Shown: one piece after another, positions 6,875-55,082 of the stretch
How the letters are laid out: every line of letters begins with the position of its first letter
Position numbering within the stretch: position 1 is the first letter of the stretch
Sequence record: OP745617
Direction: 5' to 3' (one strand)
Length of the DNA: 64,000 bases
Source of the DNA: Escherichia phage F13
The notes under the pieces: generated by a model
The model's database searches: none
What the model was told of the DNA's origin: nothing
The model's input: only the letters and a program-made list of their open reading frames with translations
Position numbers and translations under genes: made by a program

Positions 6875-8095
6875 AATTCACACTATTAATTTGCACTATG
6901 GGATTTTGCACTATGAGTCAAGATTATGTAGCGATGCCTGAAGACTTTGAAGACCCGCGATTCGCAGAGCACAATCAGGCTTTATTCGATGAGTTCATTG
7001 ACCTTGTTATTCAGGGTCATGACATGCGCGCAGCTTTTGCACTAGTATTTGGAATGGAAGTTGCAACGGATAACTACACTGGCCAGCGAATCCTTTGCAC
7101 GCAACGCAATCCATACTACAAGATGCGCTTCAAAAAGCGTATGGAAGAGATGCCACTCAAGGATTTGTGGAGCGTAAAAGGTGCAATTCACAATTTGGTT
7201 AAGCTTGTTCGTGATCCAGAAGTCGCGGCGTCAGCCAAGCTTAATGCTATTCGTGAACTGAATATCATCTACGGCATCACGATGATTGATGAAAACGGCA
7301 ATAGTAAAATGGGCCGTTCCATGGACGATTTCTACAAGGATTTTGGAGAGGCGGCCAAAGAAGGTGAGCAATTCTCCCGCCACTAGCCAATTTGCACTAT
7401 AAAACGGCCCTAGAACACATTTTCTCCAATTCTAGGGCCATCGGTAATACGACGGGGAAGGTTACAAACATAAACGCGTTAGAAAGTGTATTATTATAAG
7501 TCATCTTTTAGTCACCTTACGTAACAATTTACGACCTTCAACCGTCCAATCGAACGACTCCACCAGCAGATTCGCACTATAACCTAAGACGATGCGTCCC
7601 TTCTCGTTATCGACCCGCCAACAAGTCTCGAATAGCATTCGATTTGCACTATTAACTATTGCCGCAACTCGCGTAGGATAAGCGCAATTTGAACTATGGT
7701 CGTAAAGGGATAAGGTGCGACCACTTCCGATGGACAACGTAGCGATGAGAATGAGCGTATTCATAAGCCACCAATTTGCACTATGAAAAGCGACCCCGAA
7801 GGGCCGCCATTCGATTAGATAATCTGGAAGGTATAGGATTTGTTGCCGAACTCAAAGTTCAAGCGCCCAGCTTCCTTAAGCTTCATGCGGAAGCGAATGT
7901 GCTTGCTATCCGGCAAGCCCAGCACGGCGAACGCTACGCGGACCGATTTGAACTCGCCTACACCCTCGACCATAACGCCGTTACGGGTGAGACGCTTTTG
8001 CGCCACTTCCTTATTATCCCAACTTTTTGCAATACCTTCGCTATTCGAACGGCGATGGGAAGGAGTTCCATTTTGCACTACGCAATTTGCACTAT
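6875..8095 (+). repeat. array of about 10 copies of the 12-bp motif (A/G)ATTTGCACTAT, all on the plus strand
   Basis: Copies at 6875, 6888, 6903, 7389, 7569, 7641, 7686, 7773, 8071, 8083 (some with one mismatch). Confidence 0.7.
6898..7386 (+). CDS. hypothetical protein (157-162 aa); speculative small terminase or DNA-binding protein
   Basis: ORF starting inside the first motif copies (alternative ATG at 6913); the terminase idea is only from size and the adjacent repeat array. Confidence 0.4.
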   Translation: MGFCTMSQDYVAMPEDFEDPRFAEHNQALFDEFIDLVIQGHDMRAAFALVFGMEVATDNYTGQRILCTQRNPYYKMRFKKRMEEMPLKDLWSVKGAIHNLVKLVRDPEVAASAKLNAIRELNIIYGITMIDENGNSKMGRSMDDFYKDFGEAAKEGEQFSRH

Positions 8096-45760: not shown

Positions 45761-46738
45761 TTAGAAATACTCCATATCGGTAATATCACGGAAGCATTTA
45801 TACAAAGCAGAGCGCGGCACGTCAACGATGCCAAAGTTAAAGAATTTATACGTAAGGTATTTATCGCGATAGTTTTCGCGATTCTCCCAAAGCATTTTAC
45901 GCTCTGCCATAGGCATTGAACCAGCGGAGACGCGGAAAGGAATCATTTCACCTTTCTCATCCACATATTTTGGATTGACGACTACGAATGAGCCAAGGTA
46001 TCCTTTCGCAACTAAACCTTCAGCCTCTTTTGAACGCTTGGTGCGACCCAATTCGTCAATGAATGCTTCGTTGTTGTTCTCCATCATCTCAACGAAGTCT
46101 ATGATCAATCCTTCTTCATCGGTCCACGGCTTGTCCTTCCACACATCACGTGACTTCGGCGTCGCGCGGCCATGCTTGTATTTGCCCGTCCAAGACTTGC
46201 CATACAAGCCTTCATATCCAAGCTGGTCCGCTTCGATTTGCATCGCCGCGTACTGTTCCATATTTTCGATGTTTCGATATTCGAGAGCGCGAAGGAATGG
46301 GCGTCGACCATGGTTGATGAGATGTTGATTAACTTCAGCAACTCTAGCTCGATAGTTCGCATAACGCTTTTCAAAAGGCAAATCAGGGTCGCTGAAGTCA
46401 TCAAACACCCACCATGTAAAGTTAGTGATTGCATCAGTATTCATGCACGCAGTATAGGCCTGTTGCATGACGTTCTTGTCATTTGGATTGCCGTCGATTA
46501 GCTCTCCATCAAGTCCGTGAATTAGTTCACCCAAAAAGAGGAATTCTTTTTTGATTTGAACGTTTCTCAGCGCCATGCCGGACGTGCCCATTGGCAAGTT
46601 GTCATACGCCATTGCGCGTATTCCATCGACCTTGAATGACAATCCGCAAGGCAGCGGCACGTCTTCGCCGCGCTCGATTATTTGCTTACGCTGGCAACCC
46701 TTCATTGGTTTTAATGCTTTGATTTCTCCTGCCATCAC
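45761..46738 (-). CDS. ATP-dependent DNA ligase-like protein
   Basis: 325 aa; adenylation motif KVDGIR and EG..K-type motifs (EGLYGK, AEGLVAKG). Confidence 0.55.
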   Translation of the reverse strand: MMAGEIKALKPMKGCQRKQIIERGEDVPLPCGLSFKVDGIRAMAYDNLPMGTSGMALRNVQIKKEFLFLGELIHGLDGELIDGNPNDKNVMQQAYTACMNTDAITNFTWWVFDDFSDPDLPFEKRYANYRARVAEVNQHLINHGRRPFLRALEYRNIENMEQYAAMQIEADQLGYEGLYGKSWTGKYKHGRATPKSRDVWKDKPWTDEEGLIIDFVEMMENNNEAFIDELGRTKRSKEAEGLVAKGYLGSFVVVNPKYVDEKGEMIPFRVSAGSMPMAERKMLWENRENYRDKYLTYKFFNFGIVDVPRSALYKCFRDITDMEYF

Positions 46739-47328: not shown

Positions 47329-47844
47329 TTATTTTTCCTTTGATGCATTGAATTGATCGATTTTTATTTTAGCCTGATTATAAGTATCAATCAAGCTATT
47401 AACTTTCTCTTTTAATCGATTTGTTTCTGCGGCGAACTGAACAAGAAATCTGACATCCTCTTCTGATAGTCCACAGTTTCCTTCTGGGATAGAGAGGCGT
47501 CCAGTGGTCGCAGAGTCGGGCACACTCCTGAGTAACTCACGGGAGCAGCTGAGTTGCTCGCGCAACTTGACATTCCCAGACTTGTAACGAGCAATAGTGT
47601 CATCAGCAACCAGTTGCGCTTCCTGGCGACCCTTCTCATATGCCGATGCCGATTCAACCTGTAAAGTTGCAATTTGCTCTTCGAGTGCATTTATCTTGTC
47701 CTTACGCTCATTAAGCGATGTCAGATATTGATTATCCTTGGCCAGTGATGCGTTGGTTTGCTGCAGGTCTTCAACGTATGATCCAGCGGCAAACGCGCCA
47801 ACAAGGGCCAGAATCTTCAGGAGCGGTACAATTCTTTCTATCAT
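47329..47844 (-). CDS. i-spanin (Rz-like) candidate: N-terminal TM plus coiled coil
   Basis: 171 aa; TM IVPLLKILALVGAFAAGSYV then heptad-rich sequence; embedded out-of-frame ORF with lipoprotein-like signal. Confidence 0.4.
   Translation of the reverse strand: MIERIVPLLKILALVGAFAAGSYVEDLQQTNASLAKDNQYLTSLNERKDKINALEEQIATLQVESASAYEKGRQEAQLVADDTIARYKSGNVKLREQLSCSRELLRSVPDSATTGRLSIPEGNCGLSEEDVRFLVQFAAETNRLKEKVNSLIDTYNQAKIKIDQFNASKEK
47412..47603 (-). CDS. embedded o-spanin (Rz1-like) candidate
   Basis: Out-of-frame ORF inside 47329..47844; MTLLLVTSLGMSSCAS resembles a lipoprotein signal but the lipobox is non-canonical. Confidence 0.25.
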   Translation of the reverse strand: MTLLLVTSLGMSSCASNSAAPVSYSGVCPTLRPLDASLSQKETVDYQKRMSDFLFSSPQKQID

Positions 47845-47901: not shown

Positions 47902-48762
47902 TTAAAACTCTTCTGCGTCGGTCGGAGTTTCATTGACAGGGCCAGCGGCACCGCTTGCTTCTTCCTGCTTGCTGCGGTCAATGTTAACGTTGCCGCCAAC
48001 TACGTCGTTGTGGAATGCCTTGGCGACTTCGTACAGACCTTTGTCCTGCACCAGACCTTCCAGCTCAAACTTCAGAACTGACCATGTATTGCCGTCTTTG
48101 GACTGGGATGCAGTGCCCATGCGAACGATGTTCATAAAGGTCGGCGGCGTTTTCAGACCCTGCGGAGTCTGAACTTTCTTCTGCTGCAGAGCTGTCATCA
48201 GCATGCGAGACGGCTTGATCATGGAAGAAGTCAGAGACAGCATTGCGCTACCAAATTCACCAGTTTCTTCGTTCAACAGAATTACGAAGTGGTTACGTGT
48301 ATCTGCGTAGTAAGGCGATTTCTTCTCGTGCACCTTGCCGTTTTCGTCCGGCACAAACACTTTACCGTTGATCTCAACAGCGCGCCCTGCCGCGACTTCT
48401 GCATCAACGTGCTCTTTGGTGAATTCACCTTTAAAGCCTTTATCGTCGGACTCGCGACCGCCCCAAAGGATGAAGGTGCGTTTGAATGCACAAGGGATGA
48501 TCTGCACGCCTTTCTTGCCGTCATACAACTCACCAGTGACGGTGTTGTAAAGCATGCCAGCTTTTGCGCCAGGAACGTGTTTCGGATCATCTTCGTCGAC
48601 CATAGGTGACATCTTCTGCAGGACGACGATAAAAGGAATGGCATACGCATCGGCATCGGCACCTTCAAAACCAGCGCCAAAATCGGTCATGTCGACAAAA
48701 TCGGCCATAGCGGACATCTGGGTGTTTTTCACTGCAACTTCGGTGGTTTCTTTCTTAGACAT
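47902..48762 (-). CDS. single-stranded DNA-binding protein candidate (T7 gp2.5-like)
   Basis: 286 aa; acidic C-terminal tail ending in Phe (TDAEEF); position in the replication module. Confidence 0.35.
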   Translation of the reverse strand: MSKKETTEVAVKNTQMSAMADFVDMTDFGAGFEGADADAYAIPFIVVLQKMSPMVDEDDPKHVPGAKAGMLYNTVTGELYDGKKGVQIIPCAFKRTFILWGGRESDDKGFKGEFTKEHVDAEVAAGRAVEINGKVFVPDENGKVHEKKSPYYADTRNHFVILLNEETGEFGSAMLSLTSSMIKPSRMLMTALQQKKVQTPQGLKTPPTFMNIVRMGTASQSKDGNTWSVLKFELEGLVQDKGLYEVAKAFHNDVVGGNVNIDRSKQEEASGAAGPVNETPTDAEEF

Positions 48763-48821: not shown

Positions 48822-49379
48822 TTACTTTTTGCTTTTAGGCAAGGTTATTTTAGCTTCTTTGTATTCAAAAACGCTAATATCTTCACTAACTGGATTGCCT
48901 GCTTCCAGCTGTTCTTTTACAAATGACTTCAGTGTAGCAGAATGAACGCCTTGTTTCAATGTGGCTTCAACGCCATCTTCACGCAGCGCGGCAACAATCT
49001 CTTGCGCCTGTTCGATTTCTTCGCGACCGAACTCAGCCGTGACGCTGGACTTGATCAAGCCGCCGTAACCGTTGTTGACAAGCCAATCGAAAACTTTTAA
49101 TTCGTTTTCTTTCTTGATTGAAGCATTCACCTTGGACTCGACCTTGATTTTGGTCTTGTCCTCAAGCTTGATTTCAGACACACCAAGCTCATCCATTACG
49201 CCAGGAAGCAAAACAGTTTTGATTTCACTGATGCGCTGCTTTTGCATATCAGCTTCATCTTCAAGCTCTGTCAAAGCTTCTTGACGTTCTGCAAGTTCAG
49301 ATACTAAGCGCGCAAGGCGCTCTTGAATGCTCTCAGGAGCGACCTGCGGCAAATCATCTTCCCAATTAATATTGCTCAT
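48822..49379 (-). CDS. hypothetical protein (185 aa), coiled-coil N-terminus
   Basis: ORF in the replication or recombination neighbourhood. Confidence 0.4.
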   Translation of the reverse strand: MSNINWEDDLPQVAPESIQERLARLVSELAERQEALTELEDEADMQKQRISEIKTVLLPGVMDELGVSEIKLEDKTKIKVESKVNASIKKENELKVFDWLVNNGYGGLIKSSVTAEFGREEIEQAQEIVAALREDGVEATLKQGVHSATLKSFVKEQLEAGNPVSEDISVFEYKEAKITLPKSKK

Positions 49380-49639
49380 ATTTTACCTTCTTGCATTAGC
49401 CCTTCAACACGGGTCATTTGATAACGTTCAGGTTTCCAAGCCGCCAAAGCCTTCTCAGCGCCTTTTAAGGTTTTATATGCCTTGATGCCAGGCACAATAA
49501 CGGTATTCACCCCAGCGCCGTTGCCATAATCAAACTCTTTAACAACGCGGAACATCCCGTCAATTTCTTTGACCAAAAGACGTTTGAAAGCGATTGCGCC
49601 AGTAGCTTCATTTTTGTAACGTTCAAGGATGCGTACCAT
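49376..49639 (-). CDS. hypothetical protein (87 aa)
   Basis: ORF with overlapping stop/start. Confidence 0.4.
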   Translation of the reverse strand: MVRILERYKNEATGAIAFKRLLVKEIDGMFRVVKEFDYGNGAGVNTVIVPGIKAYKTLKGAEKALAAWKPERYQMTRVEGLMQEGKI

Positions 49640-49713: not shown

Positions 49714-51237
49714 TTAATTCATCTTTTTGCCGTCGAGGATGTGATCAGCAAGCATAGATTTCATGCTCAGTGAACGCTGAATTTCTTCATCGATGGTATC
49801 AACACCAATAAAATCAACATACAACACACTTGATTTGGTGCCGATGCGGTGATTTCGGTCTTCGGATTGCTTGCGCAGCTCGTTGTCATAGTTGCAAGAA
49901 TAATAGATTGCCAAGTCGGCGGCGGTAAGCGTGATTCCGATGCCTGCCGCTGCAGCGTGGCAAACCAAAACTTGTGTTCCACCGTTCTCGACTGTGTTTT
50001 TCTGGAAGTCATCAATCAAGAACTCTCGCTGCTCTTTCGACGTTTCACCGTTGTATACACCAGTGACCACGCCTTCAGACTCAAGCCAATCCTTAATCTG
50101 GTTCATCTCTTCCTTAAAGATGGCCCACACAATGAATTTGCGCTCTGGGTCGTCTTCCAGCACCCCTTCCACATAGTCCTTAAAGGCCGTGAATCGTGGG
50201 TTGTCTTCCATGTAGACCATCTCATCATACACCTTAACAAAGCCTGATGTCACCTGCTTCATCTTGGTGCGAGATGCGATCATCTCAAACTTAACGTTTT
50301 CTTCTTCGCCTTTGTACTCCATCAGATAGTTGTACTCATTCTTGAGTTCATCATATACATCGCGCTGCTTAGGCGACAACTCGAAGTCGATAAACTTGTA
50401 CACCTTCTCTGGAAGGTCCGGCAAGTATTCCGCTTTTGTCGCGCGGAAATAGTGCGGTTCCATCAGCCGGATAAGCTTGTCAAGGTTCTTGTACATCGGT
50501 CGGCCAAACTGGTCTTTGCGAGGCACTTGCGGAATGCCATAACCGTTGCCGCCGATTTTCTTGAGAATGGCCTGCATCTCTGGGTCGTGCGCTTCAAGCA
50601 GGACTGTAAATTCAGAGTTGAATGCACGGAACGATTTGGTGCCAAGCAAGCCAGCTTCAAGGAAGTGATATTGCATGTAAATATCAGCAGGCGAGCGCGG
50701 CAGCGGCGTACCGGAAAGGATTCGACGGGCCTTTGCCAGCCGTCCCAATTCCACAACCTTGATGGAGCGTTTGGCTGTGTTATTTTTGATACGCGTCGAT
50801 TCATCAATGATCATCAAACAGCGGTATTTCTTCAAGACCGACTCAATGTGTTGATAACCGACTGGTGTGTTGACGGTATCAATGTTGAATGAGAAGATGC
50901 GCGCAGGCACTTCGCCTTCAGGGTAGTGATCAGCAAACATCTTCTCCCAAATCGCCTTGCCCTTTTTAGTCTTCATCTTGTCATTGCCGCGCCAGTAATG
51001 CCCAATCCACTTGATGGAAAGGTGTTCTGGTGCTTCACGACGAATCCAGTTTGAGTGCACACCGTTAGGAGCGATGACAACCATGGCATCAAATGCGCCA
51101 GCGGCGAAGTGTTTTTCAAACTCTGCCAAAGCAGTCCAGGTTTTGCCAAGACCCTGCTCCATAAAATAAGCAAAGTATTTTCTGCGGCCTGCTTTATCAA
51201 GCGCCAATAATTGGTGGCGCATTCCTTGTGTTTTCAT
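49714..51237 (-). CDS. SNF2-family helicase
   Basis: 507 aa; GLGKT Walker A, DESTRIKN (DExx box), C-terminal helicase motifs. Confidence 0.8.
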   Translation of the reverse strand: MKTQGMRHQLLALDKAGRRKYFAYFMEQGLGKTWTALAEFEKHFAAGAFDAMVVIAPNGVHSNWIRREAPEHLSIKWIGHYWRGNDKMKTKKGKAIWEKMFADHYPEGEVPARIFSFNIDTVNTPVGYQHIESVLKKYRCLMIIDESTRIKNNTAKRSIKVVELGRLAKARRILSGTPLPRSPADIYMQYHFLEAGLLGTKSFRAFNSEFTVLLEAHDPEMQAILKKIGGNGYGIPQVPRKDQFGRPMYKNLDKLIRLMEPHYFRATKAEYLPDLPEKVYKFIDFELSPKQRDVYDELKNEYNYLMEYKGEEENVKFEMIASRTKMKQVTSGFVKVYDEMVYMEDNPRFTAFKDYVEGVLEDDPERKFIVWAIFKEEMNQIKDWLESEGVVTGVYNGETSKEQREFLIDDFQKNTVENGGTQVLVCHAAAAGIGITLTAADLAIYYSCNYDNELRKQSEDRNHRIGTKSSVLYVDFIGVDTIDEEIQRSLSMKSMLADHILDGKKMN

Positions 51238-51656
51238 GACAATTCCTCTAAATACTTGATGATGTGATGAATAGTTCCCTTCACGATTATCTCACGTTGA
51301 ACGTCTGCAGTATTATAACGCTTTAATTCAATAGAAGGGTGGACTAAATAAAACATCTTCTCAGAATCAACCTTAAGCAGAACAAATGATGGGTATTTCC
51401 AATCATTCCACGAAGAAAGAAAGCTGCATTGGCCTTTCTCAAATGCATTTCTGAAAGGTGCAGTGGTGGCCCTTGCAGGCCACGATTCAAAGAACTTCAT
51501 TTCAAGCCAAAAGCCGCGCCCTTTCCGGTTGGTGCCGATTACGTCCGGCACGCCATCACCAGTCATCGACTCGATTCGTTGAAGCTTCAATACCGATTCT
51601 GAATGCTTCTTCAAAGGCACGAATATGTATTTCTGCTCACGGTTATTTGTTGCCAT
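51234..51656 (-). CDS. VRR-NUC-like nuclease (PD-(D/E)xK)
   Basis: 140 aa; GDGVPDVIG...GFWLEMKF motif; commonly paired with SNF2 helicases in phages. Confidence 0.5.
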   Translation of the reverse strand: MATNNREQKYIFVPLKKHSESVLKLQRIESMTGDGVPDVIGTNRKGRGFWLEMKFFESWPARATTAPFRNAFEKGQCSFLSSWNDWKYPSFVLLKVDSEKMFYLVHPSIELKRYNTADVQREIIVKGTIHHIIKYLEELS

Positions 51657-54540
51657 CTGGATACACCTGTTTGATCACGTCAACGATGAACATGTCAATG
51701 CCTTCAAGCTTACGACCTTTCATCAGGAAGAATGCGCCGTTCCCGACGTTTTCAGCGATGTACTTCCCGTACTTCTGGAATTTCTCTGGACGAATCCTGA
51801 AGCGCATTGGCGAGTCGGTCGAGTCATCCTTGCACATAAGGTCGATGAACTGAGTCTCAAGCTTGTTCCCGTACTGGTCAAACTCTGCGTAGCGGCCATC
51901 AGCTTGAAGACCCTTTTTAAGCTTGCCGTGCTTTGTATAGATGCCGCGCTCAAGTCGTTTACGGATGCGTGTTGCTTCGTTCTCGTCCGCAAGCACTTTC
52001 TTTGTCAACTTGCCGATTACTATTGCGCGCTCGTCATCACCGACTTCCTTCATCTGGCGTATTGAAGCGCCGGACGTCACGCCAATCAGATAAGGGTCAT
52101 TATATGCCCATCCGAACTTTGTGTGCATCTCTGTCAGGTCGCCATATTTAACTTCAGCATTGGCCAATGCATCCTTCTGCTTTTGCGTTAAGGTTCCGGC
52201 TTCACGCGCTTCGATATATTTCATCGCCTTCACCATGCCGTACCCTTTCGCGTTCATGATGCCGCCGATTAGCTTTCCGTTCGCGATGGTCCAGTTCATT
52301 GAAGAGTGATCAGGGTCGATTGGCACATAATCCACGCCTTCCTTCGCAAGTTCACGTAATATCGCAATCGTCTGGTCTTCGTCCTTAGCAGCGCGTAAGC
52401 AGGCTGCGGCAAATTCCAACGGGTAGTGTCGCTTAAGCCACAAGGTCCAGTAGGTCACGACCGCGTATGACACGGAGTGTGACTTGTTAAAGCCCCATGA
52501 CCCGAACGTGGCCATCGCTTGCCAAAGCTTTCTTGCATCCGCTTCCGGTACGCCATTATTTATTGCGCCTGCAACAAAGTCCTCTCCAAGCTTGTTAAAG
52601 TATTCTTCACCCTTACGGCCTGACATTGCCTTACGTACAGCGGATGTTTTCGCCCAGTCGAATGAACCAATCTCTTTAACCACGGCCATGATTTGCTCTT
52701 GGTAAAGAAACACGCCGTAAGTCTCTTTTAGGTACGGCTCAATCTGCGGCACGTCGTACTCAATCGGCGCACGCCCTGCCGCGCGTTCAATGTATTTCTG
52801 GGCCATACCGGATGACAACGGGCCAGGTCGACCCAAAGCCGTCAGGTTGTCGATTTTGTTAAAGTTATCGACGTGCACAAAGTTTGTTACTGAGCGTACA
52901 GCGTCGCCTTCAAACTGGAAGATGCCTGACATCTTGTTTTCGTTAAGAATGTCAAGGACGCTTTGATCATCAAGCTTGATGCCGTAGAGCGTTTCAGCAT
53001 CAATAACGCCTGTATCAGAAATAATTCCGAGAGTACGAAGGCCCAACGCATCAAGCTTCAAAAGGTTAAGGTATTCGCTGTCAGGCTTATCAATTTGTGC
53101 AATCCCTTCTGCAGTTACAGTACAGTAATCAGAGATTGGGTCATTACACACAATGATTCCCGCTGCGTGAACACCTGTGTGGGACGGGTGAATCTCAAGG
53201 TCGCCCATGCAACGCGCGGCATCAGGATATTTGGCCACGAACTCTTGACCCGTGGTTGTTGTTGCAAAGGTATCCTCCAGGCCGTGACCATAACGGGCGT
53301 CACCGGATGAGTATTCAAGCAGTGCGTTTTTAATGTTGGCCGTTTCGTGGTATCCAATGTTGAACTTCTTACCAACCTGCGCCATTACTGAGTTGGCCTT
53401 AAGCGTGTTGATGTTGCCAAGCTTTGCAACGTTCATTTCGCCGTATTTCTCTTTAAGGTAATCAAACACCATGTAGCGTTTGGTATCTTCAAAGTCGATG
53501 TCGATGTCAGGAAGGTCGGCGCGGCTTACGTCGATGAATCGGGCAAACAGCAGCTTATACGGGATTGGGTCCACTTCCGTGATGCCAAGGCAATAGCAAA
53601 CAAGTGAACCAGCCGATGAGCCGCGAGCAGGACCGACGAGCATTTTTGTTTTTGCGAATCGTACAAGGTCCGCTACTACCAGAAAGTATGAGTCGAAATC
53701 TTTCAGCTGAATCTGGTGAATTTCTTCGTTGAAGCGGTCCTCATATTCCTGAGTCCATTCTTTGATGTGACCTGCTTTGAGACGGTACTCCATCCCCTCA
53801 CGCGCAAGCTTTACCATATCACCAGCAAGGTGAATAATCGGTGCCTTGCGTAATTTCAGGTCAAGTCCGACTATGCCGTTTGCTATGTCAACAGCATTGG
53901 CCGTTGCCTGATTCAGCTCATCTTCCGTCAAGATGCCTTTAAGCTGTTTGCGCAAGTCTTCCGCGTCAACGATGCAGTGCGGCTTGACCGTGTCGCGCAC
54001 TTCCCAAGCATAAGCAAAGTCAACGTGCTCAGGTGAAGGCATGTGGTTGTATCCGGTTAAAACCAGCGGCCTTCCGTTGCTGCGGTGAGCCAACACCTGG
54101 CGCTTAGCCAAAAGGAACGATGATGGGTTGACGTCTATATAATCGTAGTCCTCTGGCCGCAGCAACTCCACGGCACCGCCACAGAATTTAACGACGCCAT
54201 CGAGCGCACCGAACTCTGCACGGGTAAGCCCGCCGCGCTGCGTTGAAAGTGTTGTAGCGTTGTAAAAAGATTTTAAGTCAAGGGCCAATATCCAAGCCTT
54301 CGGTTTGAATCCCTTTTTCGGGTCCGCATCAGGGTCGATGATTGGAATCTCCATCCCAAACATAGGCTTAATATCATTTTTCTGGCATTCCTTTTCCCAG
54401 CGAACGTGACCCCATGTATTGTTATCAACTAATGCCGCGACTTCGCAGCCCAACTCTTTGAGCCGTGCTATAATTTCAGGATGCCGTCCATAAACTTCTT
54501 TGAACGTGTAACCGCTGCGAACTCTCAATTGTGGAAACAT
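51643..54540 (-). CDS. DNA polymerase III alpha-like (DnaE-type, PHP domain)
   Basis: 965 aa; N-terminal PHP; catalytic motif GPARGSSAGSLVCYCLGITEVDP...FIDVSRADLPDIDIDF. Confidence 0.9.
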   Translation of the reverse strand: MFPQLRVRSGYTFKEVYGRHPEIIARLKELGCEVAALVDNNTWGHVRWEKECQKNDIKPMFGMEIPIIDPDADPKKGFKPKAWILALDLKSFYNATTLSTQRGGLTRAEFGALDGVVKFCGGAVELLRPEDYDYIDVNPSSFLLAKRQVLAHRSNGRPLVLTGYNHMPSPEHVDFAYAWEVRDTVKPHCIVDAEDLRKQLKGILTEDELNQATANAVDIANGIVGLDLKLRKAPIIHLAGDMVKLAREGMEYRLKAGHIKEWTQEYEDRFNEEIHQIQLKDFDSYFLVVADLVRFAKTKMLVGPARGSSAGSLVCYCLGITEVDPIPYKLLFARFIDVSRADLPDIDIDFEDTKRYMVFDYLKEKYGEMNVAKLGNINTLKANSVMAQVGKKFNIGYHETANIKNALLEYSSGDARYGHGLEDTFATTTTGQEFVAKYPDAARCMGDLEIHPSHTGVHAAGIIVCNDPISDYCTVTAEGIAQIDKPDSEYLNLLKLDALGLRTLGIISDTGVIDAETLYGIKLDDQSVLDILNENKMSGIFQFEGDAVRSVTNFVHVDNFNKIDNLTALGRPGPLSSGMAQKYIERAAGRAPIEYDVPQIEPYLKETYGVFLYQEQIMAVVKEIGSFDWAKTSAVRKAMSGRKGEEYFNKLGEDFVAGAINNGVPEADARKLWQAMATFGSWGFNKSHSVSYAVVTYWTLWLKRHYPLEFAAACLRAAKDEDQTIAILRELAKEGVDYVPIDPDHSSMNWTIANGKLIGGIMNAKGYGMVKAMKYIEAREAGTLTQKQKDALANAEVKYGDLTEMHTKFGWAYNDPYLIGVTSGASIRQMKEVGDDERAIVIGKLTKKVLADENEATRIRKRLERGIYTKHGKLKKGLQADGRYAEFDQYGNKLETQFIDLMCKDDSTDSPMRFRIRPEKFQKYGKYIAENVGNGAFFLMKGRKLEGIDMFIVDVIKQVYPDGNK

Positions 54541-55082
54541 TATTTACTCCAGATGTCATATACGCCAATTTGTTGGCAGACTTTGTGCAGTAATATTACG
54601 TCGTCTAATGCACGGTGCTTCTGTTCATATTTTCCGAAATATAATTCATACAACTCTTGAAGCTTAACTCTTCGGCCAAAAATAGGCAAGGTTTGCTCAA
54701 CTGTACATATGTTTATTTCTGGAAAATTAACATCATCAAGCGTAAGTCCTTCGCGCTGTAGTGCATAATCAAGAATGTTTTTATCGAACGCATGGTTGTG
54801 CGCGATAGTTGCATCAGTCTTCTTGAAGATTTCTTTTAGCTGCGGGACGAAATTGATGAACGGTGGATTGCACTCAAGGTCTTCATTTGTTAATCCGGTA
54901 ATCTTTGTGATGATTTCTTCGATCACAATTTCAGGATTAATTATGAATTCAAAAGTTTCAAGAATCTCTTTGCCGTCTGTCAACAGACCTGCAAATTCAA
55001 TAGGGCGCGGCTGCATCCCAAGCGGCGCTTTCGGGTGCACTGTCAATCCGGTTGTTTCGAAGTCATAAGGGAGAAATAACAC
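54540..55082 (-). CDS. DnaQ-like 3'-5' exonuclease (DEDDh)
   Basis: 180 aa; Exo I YDFETTG, Exo II HNHAFD, Exo III HRALDD. Confidence 0.7.
   Translation of the reverse strand: MLFLPYDFETTGLTVHPKAPLGMQPRPIEFAGLLTDGKEILETFEFIINPEIVIEEIITKITGLTNEDLECNPPFINFVPQLKEIFKKTDATIAHNHAFDKNILDYALQREGLTLDDVNFPEINICTVEQTLPIFGRRVKLQELYELYFGKYEQKHRALDDVILLHKVCQQIGVYDIWSK

Follow-up and report, generated by a model that had tools for sequence, protein, structure and literature searches.

Among the Pseudomonas phages employed in personalised therapy, those of Pbunavirus (PB1-like) are some of the most used, and the Wifcevirus phages, their Escherichia coli-infecting relatives, reportedly replicate unusually fast (PMC11990801). 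The replication machinery of both groups is partly annotated, without an assigned protein for the binding of single-stranded DNA (an SSB). The locus analyzed here raises the question whether this part of the machinery is encoded by a gene located at positions 47902..48762, on the minus strand, of a 64,000-nucleotide stretch of Escherichia phage F13 DNA (record OP745617), which as a whole is called the window below. The open reading frame (ORF) has an ATG start with a Shine–Dalgarno-like AGGAAA sequence 7 nt 5′ of it, ends with a stop codon at 47902-47904, and encodes a product of 286 amino acids with the C-terminus ...GPVNETPTDAEEF. The gene is real, its product is 100% identical in Escherichia phage ECML-117 and 19 more Wifcevirus records, and the window is a Wifcevirus (ECML-117-like) genome. 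An earlier note, made from the DNA sequence, had proposed an SSB-like protein of the T7 gp2.5 type on account of the ending ...ETPTDAEEF; the exact ORF with this ending was confirmed, and the terminal phenylalanine was found to be family-wide. The reading that we favor, and to which we give about an even chance, is that the protein, referred to below as the target, is a new SSB-type protein that binds single-stranded DNA (ssDNA), recruits partners through its tail, and works together with a Gam-like protein encoded directly upstream.

The target is a member of the Pfam family PF23977 (Pam3 phage gp34-like; E = 4.2e-86, 289 bits vs. a gathering threshold of 27), with a match that spans residues 15-259 of its sequence and, in the 235-position profile, positions 3-234, and of phrog_2402 (E = 4e-105), a PHROG without assigned function. 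A HMMER search of 1.84 billion 50%-identity cluster representatives gave a family of 4,676 members at E ≤ 1e-3, and all 143 diverged relatives matched PF23977. Homologues were present in 509 phage records, nearly all of which, the BASEL Wifcevirus genomes with their careful annotation included, describe them as 'hypothetical protein'. A search of a literature library on PF23977, DUF7307, and phrog_2402 returned no paper, and one on Pam3 gp34 returned nothing relevant. The architecture of PF23977 is of a known, SSB-type kind, yet the family is uncharacterised, very large, and without a solved structural relative. The label 'putative holin', which the homologue has in phage phiLCL12 (OQ428192.1), is almost certainly a mis-annotation, because the protein has no long hydrophobic stretch, its model is soluble and β-rich, and its gene belongs to a replication module.

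The C-terminal tail

In an alignment of the target with 35 homologues of 50-79% identity, the terminal phenylalanine was invariant and stood after A-[ED]-x and a variable, gap-rich linker. The tails of more diverged members were compared in 142 full-length sequences found among the best 150 of the 4,676 representatives. The last residue was phenylalanine in 108 of them, aromatic (F/Y/W) in 115, and hydrophobic in 130, while the baseline for the window was only three phenylalanine-terminated products among 89 non-overlapping ORFs. The tips of the representatives were rich in aspartate and glutamate at positions -4 to -6, proline was present at position -2 in 32 of the 108 sequences ending in phenylalanine, and the commonest endings were IPF and VPF, with nine each. 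Examples of family tips are DIDADDIPF, ESDDIPF, and TDFDDDVGF, and many tips have the form DD[IV]PF, which is that of bacterial SSBs; in ten members with DDIPF-type tips the source annotation never went beyond 'hypothetical protein'. The last 26 residues of the target have a net charge of -5 and are predicted to be disordered, with the predicted local distance difference test score (pLDDT) below 50 for residues 263-286, and with the last 22-24 residues below 50 in both AlphaFold models described below. Beside the tail of T7 gp2.5 (...EESEEADEDGDF), that of the target is short and moderately acidic. The data showed that the acidic, phenylalanine-terminated tail is beyond chance. The combination of a disordered linker, an acidic tip, and an obligatory terminal aromatic residue is the C-terminal architecture of SSB-type proteins, and it is strongly conserved.

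The form of the tip differs between lineages: Pbunavirus and Wifcevirus have AE[EG]F, the smaller DnaE phages have [DG]GKF, and the PolA phages have xIPF. This suggests co-evolution with lineage-specific partners. In the reading that we favor, the flexible acidic linker with its obligatory phenylalanine would dock such partners, namely the polymerase, helicases, primase, or ligase of the phage. In the lineages with the DD[IV]PF tip it would also dock onto host SSB-interacting proteins, which are plausible targets of the tail in those lineages only. The tail may also fold back on the DNA-binding surface in an auto-regulatory manner, as it does in T7 gp2.5 and E. coli SSB. As far as stated in a preprint (10.64898/2026.02.22.705581), and in titles cited in PMC12339929, gp2.5 without its terminal phenylalanine loses the polymerase interaction, with ssDNA binding unaffected. 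The ATP-dependent DNA ligase of the window likewise has an acidic and aromatic end (...DITDMEYF), and the ligases in related loci often terminate in ...[DE]DL. By analogy with T7 gp2.5 and gp4, the target and the ligase may carry a docking motif that is common to replication proteins.

The resemblance to bacterial tips could also mean that the protein is an SSB-tail decoy or hub, which captures host chi/psi, PriA, RecQ, ExoI, RecJ, and RecO without coating ssDNA, with the outcome that host repair is disarmed or that host factors are redirected onto phage DNA. Many tips in the family, those quoted above among them, are indistinguishable from the tips of bacterial SSBs, and in several loci of the PolA lineage the adjoining small protein also ends in xPF. 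On the other hand, the window tip DAEEF and the Pbunavirus tip EAEEF are without the I-P of the host sequence, the endings in other DnaE lineages are GKF or EKF, where the phenylalanine follows a basic residue, and the conserved core of 220 residues far exceeds the needs of a decoy. Because the terminal phenylalanine is the only universal feature of the tips, it suits co-evolving phage partners better than a decoy, and we regard the latter as unlikely. If the target binds no ssDNA, the SSB-like tip found across the family would point to hijacking of the host SSB interactome.

The predicted core and the known SSB families

The structure of the target was modeled with AlphaFold2 (mean pLDDT 78), as was that of a PB1-type orthologue of 54% identity (mean pLDDT 83; pLDDT ≥ 90 in 203 residues). 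Both models consist of a disordered acidic N-terminus with a conserved DFGxGFEG sequence, a folded core, and a disordered tail. The N-terminal region, residues 1-40, holds the conserved motif DFxDxxDFGxGFEGAD, in which G29, G31, F32, E33, and D36 were invariant or nearly so in the alignment with the 35 homologues, and this region is possibly a peptide for self-interaction or partner contact. In the core, strands 86-101, 151-163, and 170-177 are followed by a helix at 179-194, strands 211-222 and 225-237, and a C-terminal helix at 241-255. This β1-2-3/α/β4-5 order of predicted elements, with an insertion of about 50 residues (102-150) after β1, would be compatible with an embellished oligonucleotide/oligosaccharide-binding (OB) fold. 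The best-conserved motif of the core is AIPFxxxLQKxSP at residues 41-53. Near-invariant positions in the 143 diverged sequences are P43, Q49, S52, P53, G69, W100, and G109, and further D154, T155, H158, K183, S185, and W227, and R156 is invariant in the closer homologues of the 50-79% identity alignment. Among these residues, W100, W227, K183, H158, and R156 count in favor of the SSB-type reading. The sole cysteine of the protein is C91.

The comparison of both models with the PDB using Foldseek gave nothing significant (E ≥ 0.008, template modeling (TM) score ≤ 0.26). The best match of both was an RPA chain, 9mj5_C (E 0.008 and 0.017), and bacterial SSBs recurred in the lists (4dam, 3tqy, 6bhw, 3pgz, and 7ym1), with unrelated β-rich proteins, which were Kir channels, kinesins, and arrestin, interleaved among them. 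With regard to the OB fold, the absence of which would speak against the proposal of the earlier note, the models fall on neither side: the order of the elements fits the OB topology, and the best weak matches are OB-fold ssDNA binders, but none of them is significant. The highest probability and the lowest root-mean-square deviation (rmsd) in the PDB list of the PB1-type model belonged to 9teh_I (E = 0.029, probability 0.66, TM scores 0.21/0.26, rmsd 8.0 Å over 186 columns), and this chain was confirmed to be the recombination directionality factor (RDF) gp3 of phage phiC31. The family of gp3 and TG1 gp25 consists of OB-fold SSBs which in electrophoretic mobility shift assays bind ssDNA and not double-stranded DNA (dsDNA), and which moonlight as RDFs (MacDonald and colleagues, PMC11795197).

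A Foldseek search of predicted viral structures in BFVD gave 30 matches at E ≤ 1e-3, most of them uncharacterised and some annotated as SSB. The matches at E values from 2.6e-3 to 1.6e-2 included the SSB of Streptomyces phage BRock, a protein of Microbacterium phage Armstrong labeled 'recombination directionality factor', and one annotated as DUF669. SSB- and RDF-annotated proteins were both found among the matches with probabilities of 0.96-1.0, where the gp3-type actinophage proteins had values of 0.96-0.99, and the 'RDF' annotations in Microbacterium phages denote gp3 homologues. The DUF669-annotated match was lower, with a probability of 0.51 at E 0.016. Taken as a whole, the comparisons of these predicted models tilt in favor of an OB-type binder of ssDNA but fall short of establishing one.

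At the level of sequence and profiles, the target had no match to any SSB family in Pfam, PHROG, or NCBIfam. In Pfam at E ≤ 1, the 143 diverged members matched PF23977 alone, and neither PF21265, the family of gp2.5, nor PF10991, that of the Enc34 SSB, was among the matches. The bacterial-type SSB domain PF00436 likewise had no Pfam match, and E. coli SSB, as a tblastn query on the window, gave no match. Searches of PDB sequences by phmmer and hmmsearch, using the protein and two family profiles, returned nothing meaningful. The hhalign probability against the gp2.5 profile was 0.75% for the close-homologue alignment and 0.15% for the diverse alignment, the corresponding values against the Enc34 SSB profile were 0.84% and 0.16%, and the alignments obtained were short and non-collinear. 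The positive control, gp2.5 against Enc34, was collinear over 140 columns, yet reached only P = 0.009, and hence the sensitivity of profile–profile comparison is limited; the target gave nothing comparable to this control alignment. A mixed SSB-like alignment gave 0.1%, which is a weak test, as its template consisted of E. coli SSB and five tail-only phage ORFs without a Pfam domain. The hhalign probability against the phiC31 gp3 alignment was 0.2%, and none of the 229 records matched by gp3 in tblastn came from a proteobacterial phage. The comparison of the target family with the Mu Gam profile was also negative (E 0.2). A zinc-binding site of the kind present in the gp3 family was not seen in the target, which has a single cysteine, and the 143 diverged sequences contained no conserved Cys/His cluster.

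These data bear on the possibility that the target is a highly diverged true homologue of T7 gp2.5 or of the Enc34 SSB, which would bind and anneal ssDNA. Its size is similar, its acidic tail has a hydrophobic end, as do those of the Enc34 type (L/I/V) and of gp2.5 (F), and the DUF669-annotated protein was among the weak BFVD matches. However, the hhalign results and the failure of PF21265 and PF10991 to match any of the 143 members make such kinship very unlikely, as does the finding that the structures of gp2.5 (1JE5) and of the Enc34 SSB (5ODL) were outside the best 50 PDB Foldseek matches of either model. Because the Pfam, NCBIfam, PDB, and profile comparisons were all negative, membership in the gp2.5 family is not supported, and what stands of the proposed T7 gp2.5-type SSB is the tail architecture and the site in a replication module.

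Two other roles were considered and rejected. For a single-strand annealing protein (SSAP) of the Rad52, Red-beta, RecT, or Erf type there were no matches and no partner exonuclease gene. Red-beta, RecT, and similar SSAPs bind SSB tails and do not carry them, and therefore the tail-bearing target is more SSB-like than SSAP-like. For a sliding clamp or processivity factor, no clamp or PCNA was among the Foldseek matches, and the tip with its acidic residues is unlike the clamp-binding sequence QLxLF.

DUF7307 and the replication module

The surroundings of the family were surveyed in 80 IMG/VR loci with homologues of 34-100% identity. The data showed that a gene for a DUF7307 protein was located immediately 5′ of the target homologue in 78/78 loci with upstream room, and that the two genes often overlap or nearly abut. 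A 2025 preprint described a GamMu-like DNA-end-binding protein of Pbunavirus F8/PB-1, in which the single substitution L73R leads to escape from Gabija, and reported that the PB-1 Gam has arginine at residue 73 (PMC12407980). Since the DUF7307 protein PB1_gp54 has arginine at residue 73, within its coiled coil, while the alternative candidate has isoleucine, DUF7307 is, as judged from its sequence, this GamMu-like end-binding protein, a homologue of PB1_gp54. The hhalign comparison of DUF7307 with the Mu Gam profile gave P = 0.015, which is only suggestive. The tails of DUF7307 proteins are lysine-rich, for example ...LPKSKK and ...PKAKKK, with 49 of 67 ending in lysine, and are opposite in charge to the acidic phenylalanine-terminated tail of the target. 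Basic, lysine-rich C-termini are also known in bacterial Ku proteins.

This strict pairing could mean that the target is a dedicated subunit of the Gam/Ku-like end binder, which in a complex at the ends of the linear phage genome blocks RecBCD or bridges these ends for the ligase, and not a general fork SSB; its acidic tail would then recruit the ligase, a polymerase, or host factors. We regard this as the main rival, though as less likely than the favored reading, and it is consistent with the position of DUF7307 in all 78 loci, with its identity as the Gabija-licensing 'GamMu-like' protein of F8/PB1 (PMC12407980), and with the charge complementarity of the two tails. The presence of an ATP-dependent ligase close by in many lineages, and of a neighboring SSB-tip protein in the PolA lineages, also agrees with it. 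It is weakened by the weak profile result for the Gam-likeness of DUF7307, and by the weak fold matches of the target, which are ssDNA binders and not Ku or other dsDNA-end binders. Mu and other phages that encode Gam are not known to require a partner of this kind. The end-binder subunit and the SSB-type protein overlap as explanations, since either would accommodate an ssDNA binder that acts at resected ends.

In the favored reading as an SSB-type protein, the β-rich core of about 220 residues, probably a much-embellished OB-like barrel, would coat ssDNA at forks and at resected genome ends. The target would act at linear genome ends together with the GamMu/Ku-like dsDNA-end binder, and also with the SNF2 helicase, and the pair would protect and process these ends for recombination-dependent replication. 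A broader proposal, which we consider doubtful, is that PF23977 and DUF7307, often together with gp32-like and SNF2 proteins, form a widespread, unrecognised DNA-end/ssDNA cassette. This cassette would consist of a basic-tailed Ku/Gam-like end binder and an SSB-type protein with an acidic, phenylalanine-terminated tip, of a new structural class without a solved relative, and it would assemble on linear termini, start recombination-dependent replication, exclude RecBCD, and be sensed by Gabija in Pbunavirus-type therapeutic phages.

The target gene is located in a replication block of the window (Table 1). The block begins with a RepB-type primase, the only plus-strand gene, and continues with a Dda-like helicase, polynucleotide kinase, ThyX, a short-chain dehydrogenase/reductase-family reductase, an epsilon-like exonuclease, DnaE, a 140-amino-acid protein, an SNF2 helicase, an 87-amino-acid ORF, DUF7307, and the target, which is followed by an Rz-type spanin, MazG, and the ATP-dependent ligase. 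Neither an SSB, of the E. coli or the gp2.5 type, nor an SSAP was detected in the 64-kb window, and no 5′-3′ exonuclease gene adjoined the DUF7307/PF23977 pair. The SNF2 helicase is usually 5′ of the pair (31/51 lineages, median offset -2.2 kb), and it has the same place in Vibrio phage QH and Pseudomonas phage Jack. The order helicase–DUF7307–PF23977 is kept in Vibrio phage QH, which has PolA and a Z-genome, in Pseudomonas phage Jack, and in Acinetobacter phage pB23. Other lineages have genes for a RepB-type primase and a DUF5906 helicase directly 3′ of the target homologue.

The family co-occurs with DnaE, in 48 loci, and also with PolA. In E. coli the DnaE-type Pol III cooperates, by way of its chi subunit, with the SSB tip ...DDDIPF, so that a phenylalanine-terminated SSB tail together with DnaE is the ordinary bacterial arrangement, and the suggestion that the pairing with a DnaE-type polymerase would be unusual was not upheld. 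Directly 3′ of some PF23977 genes there is a protein of 92-158 amino acids with an SSB-like tip (PPMDFDDDIPF, EEDDADKMPF; ...[MV]PF), which was seen in contigs with a visible PolA (L074 and L086) and in similar contigs too short to include the polymerase (L076, L079, L080, L082, and L087). Since gp29 of Vibrio phage QH (7744-8220), annotated as 'SSB', matches SSB models by its tail only and has no Pfam domain, the co-occurrence of a canonical SSB with the family is a weaker argument.

Several observations weigh against the favored reading as an SSB-type protein. None of the PDB fold matches is significant, and sequence profiles link the target neither to an SSB family nor to gp3. The core is neutral (charge 0, isoelectric point (pI) 7.2), whereas many SSB cores are basic. 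The best-conserved polar motifs (QKxSP, DTRxH, and KxS) resemble a site of catalysis or specific recognition more than one of generic base stacking. That the gene is strictly paired with that of a dsDNA-end binder suggests a narrower role, specific to ends. Because the PolA lineages have a second small protein with an SSB-like tip, the replicative SSB is not necessarily the PF23977 protein.

The polar motifs, which are atypical of SSBs, and the lack of a significant fold match would also agree with an incidental tail on a protein of unrelated role, for example an enzyme using D154, T155, H158, K183, and S185. No enzyme family was matched in Pfam, NCBIfam, or the PDB, though, and the terminal phenylalanine is conserved in about 76% of the family at a mean column identity of 24%, which argues that the resemblance of the tail cannot be incidental and makes this explanation highly improbable. 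Should the target indeed be an SSB or a recombination mediator, a missing part of a DnaE-based phage replisome would be identified, and PF23977 would define a new SSB architecture, with the terminal phenylalanine as a tractable experimental handle. The link to the Gam-like protein that sets Gabija sensitivity would then bear on the choice of therapeutic phages.

Several features of the neighboring genes were also observed. The slot of the 87-amino-acid ORF is filled by a Pam3_gp32-like gene (PF23992) in 33/51 lineages; the ORF of the window had no PF23992 match and was outside the gp32-like cluster by BLAST. A cassette of the consecutive Pam3 families PF23992 (gp32-like), PF23984 (gp33-like), and PF23977 (gp34-like) is conserved across many lineages (positions 7463-7819 of locus L083 and 32 further loci). 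The 140-amino-acid ORF between DnaE and the SNF2 helicase belongs to phrog_2165, 'DNA helicase', for which it is far too small; it had a weak RecU-like (Holliday-junction resolvase) match (E = 0.026), is kept in 24/51 lineages, and is possibly a small nuclease or resolvase. The next gene downstream of the target, within the replication block, encodes an Rz-like i-spanin, and an out-of-frame ORF embedded in it, with a lipobox-like LLLVTSLGMSSC, resembles an Rz1-type o-spanin. The terminator-like hairpin past the target gene has a stem of 9 bp with 6 G-C pairs, a loop of 4 nt, and a T-rich TTATTTATCT tail, and a similar hairpin is present downstream of the ligase gene. The two sites suggest transcript ends or attenuation inside the replication block, with both coming from a consensus scan alone, in which the regional count was not above the shuffle expectation.

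Table 1. Positions in the window of the target gene, its parts, and neighboring features
Feature	Position	Strand	Basis
Target gene, member of PF23977 (Pam3_Gp34) and phrog_2402	47902..48762	-	ORF, Pfam, and PHROG matches
Residues 1-40, acidic low-confidence N-terminal region	48643..48762	-	pLDDT 31-63; pI 4.05, charge -5
Residues 41-260, folded core (predicted)	47983..48642	-	Two AlphaFold models; core pLDDT 82-98
Residues 261-286, acidic linker of predicted disorder with the tip ...NETPTDAEEF	47905..47982	-	pLDDT, tail statistics
Terminator-like hairpin, 18 nt past the target stop codon	47863..47884	-	Consensus scan
DUF7307 (Pam3 gp33-like), 185 amino acids, N-terminal coiled coil, Lys-rich C-terminus	48822..49379	-	PF23984, E = 3e-37
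87-amino-acid ORF between the SNF2 helicase and DUF7307 genes	49376..49639	-	phrog_27467, no assigned function
SNF2-family helicase	49714..51237	-	PF00176, PF00271
140-amino-acid ORF	51234-51656	-	phrog_2165
DnaE-type polymerase	51643-54540	-	PF07733, PF17657, PF02811, PF00929 (with adjacent exonuclease)
Epsilon-like 3′-5′ exonuclease	54540-55082	-	Same Pfam set as DnaE
Rz-like i-spanin	47329-47844	-	phrog_1327
Embedded out-of-frame ORF, Rz1-type o-spanin lookalike	47412-47690	-	Lipobox-like sequence
ATP-dependent DNA ligase	45761-46738	-	
Similar hairpin downstream of the ligase gene	45688-45667		Consensus scan

Comparison with known systems

Like phiC31 gp3 and TG1 gp25, the target is a phage protein of about 240-290 amino acids encoded among replication genes. 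When the gp3 sequence is read against the predicted secondary structure of the models, both proteins appear to have a C-terminal half made of a long hairpin, a helix, and a second long hairpin. The target also resembles gp3 and the TG1 RDF in having a disordered terminal peptide, which in those proteins was proposed to serve in self-interaction and polymerase interaction (PMC11795197). In contrast to these likenesses, there is no detectable sequence similarity to gp3, and the Foldseek match to it is not significant. The zinc site of gp3 and the TG1 RDF has no counterpart in the target with its single cysteine, the interaction peptide of gp3 is N-terminal, the C-terminus of gp3 has no acidic phenylalanine-terminated tip, and no Gam-like gene is paired with that of gp3. 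The arrangement of disordered termini around a folded core, which in the target are the acidic N-terminal peptide and the tail, is shared with T4 gp32 and the TG1 RDF/SSB (PMC11795197).

With T7 gp2.5 and the Enc34 SSB the target shares the properties of a replication-module protein of 200-290 amino acids with an acidic disordered tail and a hydrophobic or aromatic end, and the terminal residue of gp2.5 is needed for its interaction with both polymerase and helicase (preprint 10.64898/2026.02.22.705581). It differs from them in the lack of sequence or profile similarity, in its shorter and less acidic tail, and in its constant pairing with DUF7307, and the conserved N-terminal motif of PF23977 is absent from gp2.5. 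The likeness to bacterial SSBs, which end in ...DDDIPF, is in the disordered linker and the acidic P-F tip, with DD[IV]PF present in many PF23977 members; however, the OB domain of the PF00436 type is lacking, and the window tip A-E-E-F shares with the bacterial tip only its acidity and the terminal phenylalanine. Finally, as in the lambda Red and Mu Gam modules, an anti-RecBCD end binder, here the GamMu-like DUF7307 (PMC12407980), is encoded beside a putative ssDNA-handling protein in an early or replication region. Unlike in those modules, there is no adjoining 5′-3′ exonuclease, and the putative ssDNA protein does not bind an SSB-type tail but carries one itself.

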